From Candidatus Poribacteria bacterium (GTDB lineage: Bacteria > Poribacteria > WGA-4E > PCPOR2b), in the NCBI GenBank assembly GCA_965215015.1, contig OZ244042.1, positions 2,688,001-2,752,000 on the forward strand: a DNA stretch of 64,000 nucleotides, written 5' to 3'. Position 1 is the stretch's first letter; each line of letters opens with the position of its first letter. The translations under genes were made by a program, and so were the position numbers. Below the pieces are notes generated by a model. It worked only from the letters and a program-made list of their open reading frames with translations. It ran no database searches and was not told the origin of the DNA. Shown one piece after another: positions 3,020-12,613 of the stretch.

Positions 3020-4189
3020 TTATACCTTCACCTCTTTATAATCCACCTCATCGAGATCGTTAGTGCCCAAATCCATTCTCGACGCTGAGCGGATATATTT
3101 CGACAATCGAGAGAGGGACGATAGATTAAGTTCCTTTCGTTTTTCCTCGATTGTTTGATAAACAATCTGATCTAATGCAACCGGATCTTGACTCACCAGG
3201 AGGCCGCCGTACTGCCACACCCCGTCGGGATCATACGTCGGGCCTCCATCGAACGCGGCGAGCAACCCATCGATGATGTTCAAAACAACCTTATCTTTGA
3301 GGACGGTATGCGCGAAGATATCAGCGATAGCAGGGTTACAGTTCAGTGGATTTGAGTGGAAGCGGTAGGTATTATCGACGCTGCCGAAGGCAAGGTTTTT
3401 CAGACAACCACTCACGCCAGCAATCCCATGATGCTTCATCACCGGAACATTAATAACCACTGTCAACTCTTTGGTGAGGAGGTTTGTATATCGGGAGCGG
3501 ATGCTGCCACTCTCGCGGCGCTCCACAACATCCTTTTCAGTTTCATAGAAGACTTCATCGTCGTAGCCAACTCCTTCACTATCCGATGCAAAGCAACGCA
3601 CCCCTCGACTGCTTTGATTAATCTCGTACCCTGCATCAATCAGATGCGATTCAAACCGATCCCATATAATAATCTGATTTGCGAGGACGCCCACCCCGTA
3701 CAACCCATCGATAATTTTATCAACGATAATCCGATGGGTGCTCAATCGCTTTCCGGCGAGTGGATTTATTTTTATTCCAACGATGTCGGTCGGCAAAATA
3801 AAATCCTTCCATGCCTCTTTCGCCGAATTAAGCCCAGTGAGCGTCATCATTGCGCGGTCGATCATTTCACTGACAATCTGCTCGTCAAGCCTTTCGCCAA
3901 CCCAAACCTTTTCGCTTCTGGCTTCGACAAGCGGCGTAAGTTGCTCTTCGACCACCTCTCCCGGAGCTCCACCGGGCTGACGCCGCAATTGAGCGATGGC
4001 GTTCTTGGTTGCTGAAGTTACGCCCCCCAACGCGAGTCCCAACCCAACAACGCCTTGAGATGCCTGACGCAGAAATCGGCGCCGACTCACCGGTTGTGGT
4101 AGGACTGTTTTTGTGCGCGAAATCTGGTCGCAATCCGCTTGAATTTGTGCAACTATAGGATCTGATGTGGGGAGGGGTCTATTTGTCAT
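3020..4189 (-). CDS. Tat-exported DUF362 domain protein
   Basis: Twin-arginine SRRRFL; DUF362-type motifs VGIKIN, INVPVMKHH..AGVSGCLKNL.FG, GGP and SQDPVALD. Confidence 0.85.
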   Translation of the reverse strand: MTNRPLPTSDPIVAQIQADCDQISRTKTVLPQPVSRRRFLRQASQGVVGLGLALGGVTSATKNAIAQLRRQPGGAPGEVVEEQLTPLVEARSEKVWVGERLDEQIVSEMIDRAMMTLTGLNSAKEAWKDFILPTDIVGIKINPLAGKRLSTHRIIVDKIIDGLYGVGVLANQIIIWDRFESHLIDAGYEINQSSRGVRCFASDSEGVGYDDEVFYETEKDVVERRESGSIRSRYTNLLTKELTVVINVPVMKHHGIAGVSGCLKNLAFGSVDNTYRFHSNPLNCNPAIADIFAHTVLKDKVVLNIIDGLLAAFDGGPTYDPDGVWQYGGLLVSQDPVALDQIVYQTIEEKRKELNLSSLSRLSKYIRSASRMDLGTNDLDEVDYKEVKV

Positions 4190-4456
4190 TGAATGGATTC
4201 ACTGAGTTTACCAAATCGTATTTACAACCTTACTTTGAGTAATTGTCTATGAAATACCAGATGATTGTGTGCGCGTCAGCTACATTATTCAATTTCATCA
4301 ACTTGGCTAGCGAACTGGATCAGTTTTTCCAGAGTCCCCTTAGGTATTAAGACACGATTTTCGGAGACACTTTCAAATTGAACACTTAACAACATTGTTT
4401 GCTTCTCGCCTTAAAAACTCGACAATAACCGTTTACGTTATCTGCACTTTGACTGT

Positions 4457-5461
4457 TTACAAACCTTTCAACTCCGCAACAATCCTGTCGCCCTTTAGCC
4501 GATTCCCAACGCGAACATCAAGGAATTTCCAGCGGATAACCCCGTTTTCATCGATGATGTAGGTCGTGGGGCGTGCGATTCGAGGATTTAGCGGATCCCT
4601 CGCGTTGTACGCATCAATTGTTTTCAGCTCCGGGTCTCCAAGCAGGGGAAATTCAATTTCAACATTATCCTGCCGTTTGACCTTCTCAATTGATTCCTTT
4701 GCCTGTGCTGGATTATCTACACTGATCGCGAGAAGTTCAGCACCTGCCGCTTGAATCGCTTCGTAATCTGGCTGCAACTCACCGAGTTGCCCAATGCAGA
4801 ATGGTCACCAGCTCCCTCGATAAAAAATCAACACAACCTTTTTCTTAGCTGCGTAATCTGCGAGGGCTATTTTTTTTCCATCTTTATCAGGTAAGCTGAA
4901 GTCCGGAGCTTTCACGCCGACTGCCAATCCATCGCCTTCTGGAAGTTGTGCAGGTTCGAGAGGGATAAGCTCGACCTCCAATTTTACTGTTTCGCCGACT
5001 AGAATGGGGTCAACAGTGAACTCCTGTTTCTCGTATTCATCAGAATCAATGGCGATCGTGAGTTGCTGGTCCGTGGTAACGCCTTCAAACTCAAAAACGC
5101 CCGATGTAGCCGTTGGTGTTTCCAAGACAACCCCTGCTTCATCGGTCAGTTGAACGCGTACATCGATGAGAGGAGTTTTCGTTACCTGATCCAATACGAG
5201 TCCGCGAATAGTCGCCGATACGTCCTCAACTTCTTCAACCTCAACTTCTTCAACCACCTCTTTCGGCACGTCTTTCGGGCTCTCGGTTGGAGGAACGGGA
5301 TCTGGTTCGTCGGTTGATACATCTGGTGCCACGGCTGGTACCACGGCTGTATCCGGCTCCACAATAGATTCCTCATCGCTGCCACAACCAAACAATAACA
5401 TGCAGGCAGACGCCAAAACTATCAGTAATTGAATTTTAGTTAATCTATCTCTTATAACCAT
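4457..5461 (-). CDS. Probable selenoprotein: lipoprotein with a carboxypeptidase-regulatory-like domain fused to an AhpC/TSA peroxiredoxin-like domain, U-P-F-C active site (334 aa, Sec219)
   Basis: ORFs 4805-5461 and 4457-4777 are in frame; reading through TGA at 4807-4805 gives FYRGSW-U-PFCIGQLGELQ, the CxxC position of the redoxin fold; lipobox LFGC. Confidence 0.9.
4774..4804 (-). promoter_or_regulatory. Putative bacterial SECIS element
   Basis: GCAACTC-GGT-GAGTTGC perfect 7-bp stem with a G-initiated loop, 21 nt after the UGA. Confidence 0.8.
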
Positions 5462-6018
5462 TTTTCCAACTCGCTTTCGTAGATTGCCTTATCTTCTTGT
5501 GCACCGCTAAATACCTTTACAATTTCTCCGTTACGATTGATGAGATACGCGGATGGTAGTACCGGCACCTGGTATCTTTGAATAGTTTCGGACTCTGCCA
5601 GAAGAATCGGGTAGTTGATGTCAAACCCTCTTTTGCTGAGATCCTGAAAAAAAAGTTCAATATTTTCTAGCCGTCCATCCACATCATCCGCTGAAATACC
5701 AATCATCTCAAATCCTTGCCCTCGATATTCGTCGTAGAGTTCTATGAAGCGTGGAATCTCCTCTTGGCACGGTTTACACCATGTCGCCCAAAAATCAACG
5801 ATGACAACTTTGCCCTGATAATCCGAGAGGCTTACTTCCTCCAGTTCTGTGTTGAGCAGCGTGAAGAGCGGGGCAGGCTGAAACGATGGATCTCCATTTA
5901 CATCACCAGTATTTGTCATTTTGTCACTTGTATCATTGTCACTTGTATCATCCGAACAACCCAGAAATGGTAGCAAGCAGAGGATGAGACTAAATAGGCA
6001 AAACAATTTCCAATACAT
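5452..6018 (-). CDS. TlpA/ResA-family thioredoxin-like lipoprotein
   Basis: GKVVIVDFWATWCKPC motif, cis-Pro (VLPS), lipobox FLGC; overlaps the start of the downstream gene. Confidence 0.92.
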   Translation of the reverse strand: MYWKLFCLFSLILCLLPFLGCSDDTSDNDTSDKMTNTGDVNGDPSFQPAPLFTLLNTELEEVSLSDYQGKVVIVDFWATWCKPCQEEIPRFIELYDEYRGQGFEMIGISADDVDGRLENIELFFQDLSKRGFDINYPILLAESETIQRYQVPVLPSAYLINRNGEIVKVFSGAQEDKAIYESELEKWL

Positions 6019-6123: not shown

Positions 6124-7062
6124 TTAACCGAGACGTAAAATGGTGCCCTTTGATCCAACAATCCAAGCGTGCGTCTTATACAGATAGATGTCCAAAAGGT
6201 GCCATGCCGCCTCATTCGGTTGAGGCGACCACGTCCCCCCGGCATCGGTGGTATGCAGAATCAGGCCATCTTCACCAACCGCCCAACCCTGTTTGGAATC
6301 TCGGAATGCAACGCCGCGCAAGGTTTTCGGTGTACCACTTTTCTGGGAATTCCAGTTTGCACCACCATCAATCGTGTGTAAAATCAACCCATCCGTTCCA
6401 ACGATCCAACCGTTTTGTGGGTTGACAAAATAGACGCCGAGCAGCGATTGTTCAGTATCGGCCTGCTGTTCACGCCAGATCTCGCCGCCGTTATTCGTGT
6501 GGAGGATCGTCCCCTCCTTACCGACAGCCCAGCCGTACTTAGCATCAGCAAAATGGACAGCCCACAGATGCGGTGCCGGCGGTGAATTTTGGCGACTCCA
6601 CGAACCCCCACCGTTATTTGTGTGAAGGATGACGCCCCCGCCGCCCACTGCCCAACCCTCTGTTTCATCTACGAAATGAATGTCGAGCAAACCACTGTCC
6701 GTGTGGCTTTTTTGCGCTGTCCACGATTTGCCCCCGCTGCCCGTATAGTGGATCTGCCCTCTGATACTGACCGCCCAACCATTGTTGGGGGTGGAGAAGT
6801 GCACCTTATTGAGCGCGTTTGGAGTAATCGCTTTTTGCGGCGAGCGTACCTGCCACTTCAAACCACCATCCTCTGTGAATAGCACCAAACCATCCGTACC
6901 AACTGCCCAACCGCGTTTGGAATCTACAAAGTGAACACCGTACAGGTGTGCCTCTGTTCCCGATTCGATCTGTTGCCAACCCGTCGGCGTCTTGTCGCCG
7001 TCACAACCGAAGTAGCTGACAATACAGACGCAGGTAATGAGTGTATGAATGTATTTCCTCAA
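6124..7062 (-). CDS. YCF48-like/BNR-repeat beta-propeller lipoprotein
   Basis: Repeated L..VHF.D...GWAVG..G.ILHT.DGG..W units; lipobox YFGC; RBS GAGGAGG. Confidence 0.9.
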   Translation of the reverse strand: MRKYIHTLITCVCIVSYFGCDGDKTPTGWQQIESGTEAHLYGVHFVDSKRGWAVGTDGLVLFTEDGGLKWQVRSPQKAITPNALNKVHFSTPNNGWAVSIRGQIHYTGSGGKSWTAQKSHTDSGLLDIHFVDETEGWAVGGGGVILHTNNGGGSWSRQNSPPAPHLWAVHFADAKYGWAVGKEGTILHTNNGGEIWREQQADTEQSLLGVYFVNPQNGWIVGTDGLILHTIDGGANWNSQKSGTPKTLRGVAFRDSKQGWAVGEDGLILHTTDAGGTWSPQPNEAAWHLLDIYLYKTHAWIVGSKGTILRLG

Positions 7063-11919: not shown

Positions 11920-12381
11920 TCAGATGCCGTCCTTTTGGCACTCGGCACAGTATCCCAAAATCTCATTTCTATATTTTACCGGCTTGAACTGGTGTGTTTT
12001 GCAAACGTCTTCTTGGAGCGCGTCAATCTCCAGGCTTTCAAACTCAATGATACTGCTACATCGCAGGCAGATTAGATGGGCGTGCTCTTGGCGTGAATGG
12101 ATGTGTTCATAATGCGACTGTTTCTGTGCATCAATCACCTCCGTCAGCAGCCCACTTTTGACAAGAAGCGGTAACGTCCGATAGATCGTCGCACGCGAAG
12201 CTGTATATCCATTTTGGCGCATCCGCATCAACAGATCATCCGCACGGAAATGATCATCGTAAGCGAAGACCTGTTCGAGGATGTTGCGCCGCTCCGCTGT
12301 GAGTCGGAGCGCATTGCTTTCAAGGTATTTGCTGAATTTTTGAATAATCTGTGATTGAATTGTTTGCTTGTTTTCTTGCAT
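11920..12381 (-). CDS. Fur family transcriptional regulator
   Basis: LRLTAERR, SRATIYRTL, HAHLICLRC and C-terminal CAEC; RBS AAGGAG before ATG 12381. Confidence 0.93.
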   Translation of the reverse strand: MQENKQTIQSQIIQKFSKYLESNALRLTAERRNILEQVFAYDDHFRADDLLMRMRQNGYTASRATIYRTLPLLVKSGLLTEVIDAQKQSHYEHIHSRQEHAHLICLRCSSIIEFESLEIDALQEDVCKTHQFKPVKYRNEILGYCAECQKDGI

Positions 12382-12613
12382 AATAAAGATCTCCTTACTT
12401 ATTAGTGAGGAATGCTTTCGGAACAAATGAGATTTGCCCTTGTCGTTAGAGTTGACGGTACAGATGATCTTCTTTGCCTATCAAGAATCGACTTGGGGAT
12501 TGCTGGTTGTTCTTCTGGATATCGCTCGACGAGTGCCTTAGCGACCCATAGTCATGAGCAACCCTTTTTGATAGTTTCGACGGATTGTTTAGGTAATTAG
12601 TTGTTCCGAACAT

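Follow-up and report, generated by a model that had tools for sequence, protein, structure and literature searches.

A Poribacterial lipoprotein redoxin gene with an in-frame UGA codon and a SECIS-type hairpin

Gene structure and its representation in databases

The present work concerns a gene on the minus strand of a 64,000-nucleotide (nt) stretch of DNA from a Candidatus Poribacteria bacterium (assembly GCA_965215015.1, contig OZ244042.1, positions 2,688,001 to 2,752,000), which is referred to here as the window and whose own numbering is used below unless a genome location is given. The window sits in a single contig of 5.94 Mb. In an initial annotation, made from the sequence alone, it was proposed that an open reading frame (ORF) in this window and the frame following its TGA stop codon form a single gene for a protein containing selenocysteine (Sec, U). 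The ORF in question starts with the ATG at 5461-5459 and consists of 218 codons (5461..4805), with the TGA at 4807-4805 lying in the context ...VVLIFYRGSW-TGA-PFCIGQLGELQ (with a longer upstream part, ...KKKVVLIFYRGSW-TGA-PFCIGQLGELQ). As had been claimed, with all coordinates and counts correct, this TGA falls at the first Cys position of a redoxin motif. If the TGA is read through, then the same frame continues for another 115 codons up to the TAA at 4459-4457, giving a protein of 334 residues in all, which around codon 219 reads ...IFYRGSW-U-PFCIGQLGELQPDYEAIQ... In this protein, the Pfam domain AhpC-TSA (PF00578) spans residues 181-311 as one uninterrupted domain over the TGA, with a score of 113.5 bits versus a cut-off of 26, and it is thus completed by the downstream frame, as had also been stated. 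Taken loosely and as a whole, the proposal, viz. one 334-codon gene with UGA as codon 219 that encodes an exported Sec-containing redoxin lipoprotein, is in our view very probably correct.

The manner in which this gene is stored in the databases is as had been anticipated for a gene split in two by standard gene callers. The 116 closest proteins in a collection of 5.8 billion proteins cover 37-65% of the 334-residue query, all of it before residue 219, and they are either unnamed or labelled as 'hypothetical protein' or 'transthyretin family'. The window's own 218-amino acid (aa) stump is present in this collection (P0002), and the other stumps are 199-368 aa long. The C-terminal pieces have been called as separate small proteins of 88-113 aa, of which P0150 and P0153 in the representative library are examples, the former (113 aa) matching residues 224-333 of the query. 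As the database proteins stop before residue 219, functional surveys cannot see their redox domain. The scores for three models for selenoproteins in NCBIfam were also below their cut-offs (NF040769 SelL_rel_redox, 47.7 vs 120; NF040737 PrxU, 39.4 vs 270; NF041054 WAxxUGC_long, 22.9 vs 300), and the lack of a curated NCBI model would fit with the family not having been annotated. The work is in the main a correction of annotation, as a whole family of lipoproteins of Poribacteria is stored in the form of stumps ending at the active site.

If the TGA had resulted from an error in sequencing or assembly of a TGC or TGT codon, which is a further explanation that should be considered, then contigs from other studies should differ from the window at this place. 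Contigs carrying this stretch were found in two other runs, with 7 (run X5) and 44 (run X8) differences, and none of the listed differences is at 4805-4807, the comparison containing 14 differences beyond those listed; a TGC or TGT at 4807-4805, which had been named as an observation that would speak against the proposal, is therefore not seen among the listed differences. The contig from run X1 is identical to the window, but it may represent the source sample, and run X7 contained no contig of the same organism across 4422-4604 and only fragmentary contigs around the TGA. In addition, the TGA is present in independent genomes, in all of the sequences inspected (see below). No support was found for an error of this kind, and it is exceedingly improbable. 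The coordinates of the gene, its parts and its neighbors are given in Table 1.

Table 1. Positions in the window of the candidate selenoprotein gene, its parts and the adjoining genes
Feature	Position	Strand	Basis or remark
Complete gene for the candidate selenoprotein	4457..5461	-	334 codons and TAA; putative Sec codon 219; orthologues read through likewise
Lipoprotein-type signal peptide, residues 1-26, lipobox L-F-G-C	5384..5461	-	Cys26 codon at 5386-5384
Acidic, Pro-rich tether, residues 27-82	5216..5383	-	Sequence; predicted local distance difference test (pLDDT) 41-57
CarboxypepD_reg beta-sandwich, residues 84-165	4967..5212	-	Pfam PF13620
AhpC/TSA-fold redoxin domain, residues 181-311, active site W218-U219-P-F-C222	4529..4921	-	PF00578
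UGA codon 219, probable Sec codon	4805..4807	-	TGA in 47/47 sequences; Cys in Cys-type relatives
Cys222 codon, predicted partner of Sec in U-x-x-C	4796..4798	-	Alignments; peroxidatic Cys column of BCP-type peroxiredoxins
SECIS-type core: 7-bp stem GCAACUC/GAGUUGC, loop GGU; also encodes (G)QLGELQ	4774..4790	-	
TlpA/ResA-like CxxC (WCKPC) lipoprotein gene, upstream	5452..6018	-	Stop overlaps the start of the redoxin gene (ATGGTTATAA)
DUF362 protein gene, downstream, twin-arginine-type N-terminus (SRRRFLRQ...)	3020..4189	-	

Conservation of the TGA codon and of the hairpin following it

In a read-through search of related genomes, the protein was found in 60 of the 61 genomes, and every listed match that covers residue 219 contains an in-frame TGA; there were 111 further matches beyond those listed, and the rows that are free of stops cover only the beta-sandwich part. 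For 47 sequences the place of the TGA was inspected, and in all of them (47/47) it is located exactly at the U of the motif x-R-G-x-x-U-x-x-C. These sequences come from all 30 of the best loci and from 16 of 20 further loci belonging to other families, one locus containing two genes; the four remaining loci (L077, L081, L083 and L084), which were missed by the motif pattern, have one TGA in each match. In a sample covering the phylum, 140 of the 151 Poribacteria genomes had a match at E <= 1e-25, with the matches distributed as 25/25, 100/100, 9/10, 3/4 and 2/5 in the families f1 to f5, respectively, and as 0/6 in four further families. All of the listed matches in this sample (there being 158 more beyond those listed) carry an in-frame TGA, and no Cys-type copy of this family was seen among the listed matches within Poribacteria. 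In the sampled genomes this lipoprotein family appears to have been kept in its Sec rather than its Cys form.

Outside of this family, Cys-type proteins that read FYRG-x-W-C-P-x-C are found (P0126, P0128, P0130, P0134, P0137 and others), P0128 being a 238-aa lipoprotein with 48% identity. The Cys/UGA pairing that is expected of a real selenoprotein, and which the initial annotation had advised to look for, is therefore seen between this family, which has TGA and not TGY in all 47 sequences, and its Cys-containing relatives. For more distant non-Sec homologues from other phyla, 48 of 49 were aligned (in a tblastn-guided alignment), and at the position of the Sec codon 45 of them contain a Thr codon and 3, in TlpA-like loci, a Cys codon (TGT or TGC).

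If the TGA were a genuine stop codon, then the gene would encode a truncated beta-sandwich lipoprotein, followed by a redoxin remnant that is translated separately or not at all, i.e., a split or decaying gene. The products of gene callers described above (the 218-aa P0002, the stumps of 199-368 aa, and the short C-terminal proteins, P0150 and P0153 among them) correspond to such a split, and one orthologue, that of the genome G017, has in fact decayed and contains 7 stops. However, a genuine stop would have to hit the catalytic residue in all 47 sequences across four families, and the 115 codons downstream of it are under conservation at the protein level without any conserved start codon. 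Among 30 sequences, the residues C222, Q225, L229, Y233, E242, L274, D276, I282, Y285, G307 and L331 following the TGA are invariant, and around the active site R215, G216, U219, C222 and Q225 are invariant in the 30 orthologues. The Pfam domain uninterrupted by the TGA, the covarying hairpin that comes after it and the full Sec machinery of the genome (both described below) also argue against a genuine stop, and this explanation is very improbable.

Some other observations on these loci may also be noted. The decayed orthologue is from a species of the same genus (G017:C2:3548523-3549215), with 5 TGA, 1 TAG and 1 TAA codons in the match, and one fragment from G022 with several stops also looks decayed. 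Tandem arrays of 2-4 paralogous genes for the redoxin lipoprotein, each with its own TGA, are present in relatives, at three places (G044:C4:1672414-1675928; G035:C12:3709-6649; G024:C730:12627-14584).

The TGA is followed, at 4790-4774, by a perfect hairpin GCAACUC-GGU-GAGUUGC, whose stem begins 14 nt and whose loop begins 21 nt from the UGA, and the initial annotation was correct in regard to both the hairpin and the latter distance. In the model for the bacterial selenocysteine insertion sequence (SECIS) that is set out in PMC13188914 (legend to Fig. 2), the apical loop contains 3-9 nt with a G in its first two positions, the upper stem 4-16 bp, the distance from UGA to loop is 16-37 nt and the minimum free energy is <= -7.5 kcal/mol. 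All constraints of this model are satisfied by the hairpin (loop of 3 nt, stem of 7 bp, spacing of 21 nt, -7.7 kcal/mol). The 17-nt hairpin is more stable than expected (z = -3.97), with 2 of 200 shuffled sequences being equally stable, and its core sequence occurs only once in the 5.94-Mb genome. A hairpin seen in one sequence is suggestive but not conclusive, and the significance of this hairpin comes mainly from its conservation across genomes. In an alignment of the 47 sequences (41 distinct rows), the columns of the stem pair in 96.5% of the cells, compared with 13-51% when the 3' partners are slid by 1-3 columns; the loop always starts with G, followed by G or U. Changes on both sides of a pair are seen in three of the seven stem pairs (C-G to U-A, C-G to G-C, and A-U to G-C), and the covariation score was reached by none of 500 shuffles. 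One example of such changes is provided by the family f4, where the hairpin reads GCAGCUG-GUA-CAGCUGC. Seven out of seven stem pairs were found in none of the 48 aligned non-Sec homologues, in which 2-6 of 7 positions pair by chance.

The interpretation of this hairpin as a SECIS element should however take into account several observations that weigh against it. The compared sequences are related to each other, so the shuffle controls overstate the significance. The stem also encodes the conserved peptide QLGELQ, and therefore a part of its conservation is at the protein level. Wider folds are no more stable than shuffled sequences (z = -0.97 for 45 nt and +0.38 for 71 nt), and thus in this one sequence only the small hairpin goes beyond chance. 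Lastly, the hairpin is minimal, having a triloop and lacking a bulged U, and in this it is unlike the SECIS of the Escherichia coli fdhF gene. A search of the region 4600-4950 against Rfam (E up to 10) gave no SECIS family, and only two chance matches to long non-coding RNAs (E = 6.5 and 8.5). Nevertheless, the choice of codons in the stem is more restricted than the peptide demands: the entropy at the third codon position is 0.46, 0.54, 0.38 and 0.00 bit in the four stem codons, versus 1.58 bit in the Gly/Val codon of the loop and 0.8-1.7 bit in most of the flanking codons, and the second Leu of the stem, for which six codons are possible, is UUG in all 41 distinct rows. The hairpin is thus a feature at the RNA level, of the SECIS type, and its compact 17-nt form, in which the stem doubles as the coding sequence for a conserved peptide, nicely illustrates dual coding. 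A lower stem around the UGA (CUGGU pairing with GCCAG in this one sequence) was also considered, but it is not claimed, in view of the wider folds being no more stable than the shuffles. As a separate observation, contigs of 4-11 kb in the runs X7 and X8 match the window over only about 40 nt (4772-4812, consisting of the UxxC region and the hairpin) and diverge on both sides, so that paralogous genes of other organisms seem to share the SECIS core.

Whether a UGA codon can be read as Sec also depends upon the machinery of the genome, and the presence of selA, selB, selC and selD, for which the initial annotation had advised to look, is seen as a complete set. The gene for tRNA-Sec (76.5 bits versus a cut-off of 47) is also called by ARAGORN as tRNA-SeC with the anticodon tca; directly upstream of it there are selA (609.8 bits) and selB (371 bits, model positions 1-581, i.e., its full length). 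The match for selD scores 369.1 bits, and all four are above the curated cut-offs. The selD gene, located outside of the window at G000:C1:3518779-3519699 (L023), contains one in-frame TGA, and therefore its product is probably a selenoprotein as well.

The presence of this machinery also bears on the explanation that the UGA is read through with insertion of a residue other than Sec (Trp, Cys or Gly), whether through a near-cognate tRNA or through reassignment of the codon. Bacteria do show read-through of UGA at a low level. However, of the 39 frames of >=200 codons in the window (some of which are non-genes), 13 terminate in TGA, and since TGA is thus used as an ordinary stop codon it has not been reassigned. 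Further, the in-frame TGAs located in this genome occur in selD and at the redox-active sites of proteins with a thioredoxin fold, and together with the tRNA-Sec/selA/selB/selD set and the conserved SECIS-type hairpin they make a non-Sec read-through highly unlikely. Based on these considerations, we infer that codon 219 is almost certainly decoded as selenocysteine. The single 334-aa Sec protein of the initial annotation, which standard callers had been expected to split in two, is therefore supported by the machinery, the conservation of the TGA and the hairpin as well as by the split database entries.

The other frames with in-frame TGAs noted above are as follows. Two tandem genes for BCP-type peroxiredoxins contain FYPKDFTGG-TGA (G000:C1:5599188-5599601 and 5599626-5600093; L059 and L057), and this is the motif (TxxU) that true Sec-peroxiredoxins have, with the Sec in the peroxidatic position. 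Three other AhpC/TSA-like frames are at G000:C1:2801108-2801566 (L056; FFRGTW-U-PNS, UxxS), 4567475-4567975 (L058; LLQTY-U-PHC, UxxC) and 5639618-5639980 (L063; FWRGAY-U-PKD). When the gene in the window and the tandem pair are counted, the thioredoxin-fold Sec candidates of this genome number six or more.

Protein architecture and chemistry of the active site

The protein encoded by this gene starts with a signal peptide, whose residues 3-23 form a helix in the structure model and in which no twin-arginine motif is present. The sequence conforms to a lipobox, with its Cys26 being invariant in 30/30 aligned orthologues and G25 and G27 conserved in >=90% of them, and lipid modification of the protein would be expected to occur at this Cys. 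The acidic, Pro-rich tether that follows varies in length among the orthologues and is predicted to be disordered (pLDDT 41-57 in the model). The CarboxypepD_reg domain (PF13620, residues 84-165) scores 34.0 bits versus a cut-off of 32.3 in Pfam and is modelled as seven strands with pLDDT 89-95. The number of copies of this domain differs among the orthologues, ranging from one to three, with one copy being present here, three in most species of the same genus, and two in the families f2 and f4. The AlphaFold model of the 334-residue protein has a mean pLDDT of 83.5 and a predicted template modelling (TM) score of 0.54, and in it U219 directly precedes the helix 220-238, so that it would be located where the attacking Cys is classically found in a thioredoxin fold.

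In regard to its fold, the redoxin domain is related to peroxiredoxins (Prx). The nearest solved structures matched by Foldseek are all peroxiredoxins, viz. Bcp4 (3hjp, E = 5.5e-14), AhpE (4x1u, TM to target 0.88) and ApPrx, with the TM to target being 0.59-0.89 over the peroxiredoxin matches and 0.86-0.88 for 3hjp and 4x1u, and the best match by sequence in the PDB is to the BCP 2cx3 (E = 1.4e-12). However, the residues of the active site are different. The signature P-x-x-x-T/S-x-x-C of peroxiredoxins is replaced here by R-G-x-x-U-x-x-C, where R215 is found at the position of the Pro, U219 at that of the Thr (which is Thr in 45 of the 48 BCP-type homologues) and C222 at that of the peroxidatic Cys. 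Peroxiredoxins have an Arg three residues ahead of the F/Y in the next strand, and in its place this protein contains P298, with R297 located one residue earlier; the Arg preceding the next strand in 2cx3, with which P298 aligns, is one that we take to be the catalytic Arg of peroxiredoxins. In an alignment with ResA (3c71), in contrast, the correspondence is residue for residue, GSW-U-PFC with GTWCPHC and P298-T-T-Y with P-T-T-F, and both the W-C-x-x-C motif and the Pro loop before strand 3 that characterize the TlpA/ResA group are present, with Sec replacing the first Cys. The description of this protein as peroxiredoxin-like in the initial annotation thus applies to its fold, but not to its catalytic motif, where the Sec is at the Thr of the Prx T-x-x-C and at the first Cys of the ResA WCxxC.

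From the alignment of the Sec with the first Cys of the TlpA/ResA WCxxC it would follow that a thiol-disulfide (selenylsulfide) oxidoreductase is likelier than a peroxidase, and the replacement of the Prx signature together with the residue-for-residue match to ResA favors a mechanism of exchange of the thioredoxin type. Based on these motifs, we lean towards a thiol-disulfide (selenylsulfide) reductase chemistry for the Sec redoxin. However, if the protein is a genuine selenoprotein that uses its U/C pair to reduce hydroperoxides and not disulfides, then the nearest solved folds (3hjp, 4x1u and ApPrx, TM to target 0.59-0.89) and the best PDB sequence match (2cx3, with C222 aligning with its peroxidatic Cys) will all be as observed; selenols also react rapidly with peroxides, and a true TxxU Sec-peroxiredoxin pair is encoded elsewhere in this genome. 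Against the reductase there may further be counted that the score for the ResA subfamily in NCBIfam (NF002854) is 58.6 bits, i.e., under the cut-off of 170, that the nearest solved structures of this fold are all peroxiredoxins, and that the redox direction, partner and substrate of the enzyme are drawn by analogy and from the order of the genes. In contrast, what speaks against the peroxidase is the loss of the Prx signature (R215 at Pro and U219 at Thr), the presence of P298 and not Arg at the Arg column of the BCP chain, whose catalytic role we assume as above, and the match of W-U-P-x-C and of the P-T-T-Y strand with ResA. A peroxidase is thus possible but distinctly the less probable of the two functions.

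If the protein functions as a thiol-disulfide reductase, then its formation and action may be envisaged as follows. While the ribosome is positioned at the UGA, the hairpin (7-bp stem, G-G/U-N triloop), which lies 14 nt further on, would bring in SelB loaded with Sec-tRNA(Sec). The product would be exported by means of its lipoprotein signal peptide, with acylation of Cys26, and would then be tethered to the membrane, with the disordered acidic, Pro-rich tether followed by the beta-sandwich and by the thioredoxin-fold (AhpC/TSA) domain, in which Sec219 would be the exposed attacking nucleophile at the N-terminus of the helix 220-238 and Cys222 would resolve the intermediate, so that a selenylsulfide results. 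Such an enzyme would be an extracytoplasmic thiol-disulfide oxidoreductase that most likely serves as a reductant, and its reduced state may be maintained by a membrane electron shuttle of the DsbD/CcdA type that is encoded elsewhere in the genome, the electrons possibly being routed through the TlpA-like CxxC lipoprotein, whose upstream gene seems to be translationally coupled to that of the redoxin. A DsbD_TM protein is present elsewhere in this genome (178 bits), which would be the putative shuttle feeding the Sec redoxin.

Relationship to known systems and gene neighborhood

Subfamilies of selenoproteins are defined by their domain and Sec motif (PMC9312934). A family of bacterial selenoproteins termed 'Prx-like thiol:disulfide oxidoreductase' (PF00578, UxxC/UxxU) is 'predicted with high confidence' in Table 1 of PMC13188914 and in PMC9312934, and the GOS (Global Ocean Sampling) survey contains 225 sequences for 'Prx-like 1' (pfam00578, UxxC; Table 2 of PMC2398784) and describes domain fusions in thioredoxin-fold selenoproteins. 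By this rule of domain and motif, as applied to the sequence (PF00578 at 113.5 bits, U219-P-F-C222), the Sec redoxin is a member of this class. In common with the class, as it is described in these papers, it has the same Pfam domain, the UxxC position, a SECIS element immediately downstream, Cys homologues, and a function assigned by inference; in contrast to it, when compared by domain and motif, the protein here is an exported lipoprotein of Poribacteria with a long acidic tether and 1-3 CarboxypepD_reg domains. The initial annotation considered the architecture to be unusual for an exported protein. The layout of putative lipid anchor, linker, beta-sandwich and redoxin is supported, but it is less unusual than was thought, as selenoproteins that are lipoproteins have been described (bioRxiv 10.1101/2022.07.06.499078) and Table 1 of PMC13188914 includes thiol:disulfide interchange selenoproteins. 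In the literature no description was found of this combination of a lipoprotein and beta-sandwich with a Sec redoxin, or of a selenoproteome of Poribacteria, but such sequences could be listed in supplementary tables; PMC13582414 includes Poribacteria among the phyla with Sec-type Group 4 hydrogenases.

Of the other proteins with which this protein may be compared, TlpA/ResA (B. subtilis ResA, 1st9 and 3c71) is similar in being a membrane-tethered, outward-facing thioredoxin fold with W-C-x-x-C and P-T-T-F/Y, and a TlpA-like CxxC paralogue is located upstream here. It differs in that here Sec takes the place of the first Cys, a beta-sandwich is present in addition, the window provides no context of cytochrome-maturation genes, and the ResA model scores below its cut-off (58.6 < 170). 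BCP/PrxQ and AhpE (2cx3, 3hjp, 4x1u) are the closest in solved folds and sequences and have their peroxidatic Cys at C222, but they differ from the R-G-x-x-U-x-x-C and the Pro at the Arg column that are found here. PrxU (NF040737, TxxU) and the SelL-related redox protein (NF040769) are likewise thioredoxin-fold selenoproteins of the AhpC/TSA superfamily; however, the scores with their models are far under the cut-offs, and in PrxU the pair ends with the Sec (TxxU), whereas here it begins with it. The lipoprotein and beta-sandwich architecture and the Sec-only distribution across Poribacteria are thus modest additions to a well-known kind of selenoprotein. They do not overturn the current understanding of selenoproteins, and the value of the finding lies in the correction of an annotation gap that extends over the phylum and in a SECIS that clearly exemplifies dual coding; Poribacteria also appear to carry a sizeable thioredoxin-fold selenoproteome.

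The gene for the TlpA/ResA-like lipoprotein ends within the start region of the redoxin gene, with a 10-nt overlap at the start codon of the latter (ATGGTTATAA), and this points to the two genes being translationally coupled. Within the short flanks by which gene order was judged, the TlpA-like gene is adjacent in 29 of the 30 orthologous loci and the DUF362 gene is downstream in 27 of the 30, and the same order is seen in 7/7 Poribacteria records. The three genes (TlpA-like, Sec redoxin and DUF362) are found together across the searched families f1 and f3, with the redoxin being of the Sec type in every copy seen. It is tempting to regard these genes, viz. those for the TlpA-like lipoprotein, the Sec redoxin and the DUF362 protein with its Tat (twin-arginine translocation) signal, as an extracytoplasmic module forming an undescribed selenium-requiring periplasmic redox pathway, but this suggestion is a speculative one, which we put forward with considerable reservation. 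If it is true, then the module might mature or repair an exported DUF362 protein (possibly one containing a metal or Fe-S cluster) or act on oxidants at the cell surface by reducing them, and the supply of selenium would be a determinant of fitness for Poribacteria.

In regard to the neighboring genes themselves, the DUF362 protein starts with a signal of the twin-arginine type (SRRRFLRQASQGVVGLGLALGG) and is matched by none of the NCBIfam models; in the families f1 and f3 its gene immediately follows that of the Sec redoxin. A gene for a Ycf48/BNR-repeat propeller protein (PSII_BNR, 182 bits) with a lipoprotein-like N-terminus is located at 6124-7062 on the minus strand, and it is found upstream of the redox genes in this genus, the lineage being non-photosynthetic. 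Further upstream, about 6 kb away and on the same strand, there is a gene for a Fur-family regulator (95 bits) at 11920-12426.

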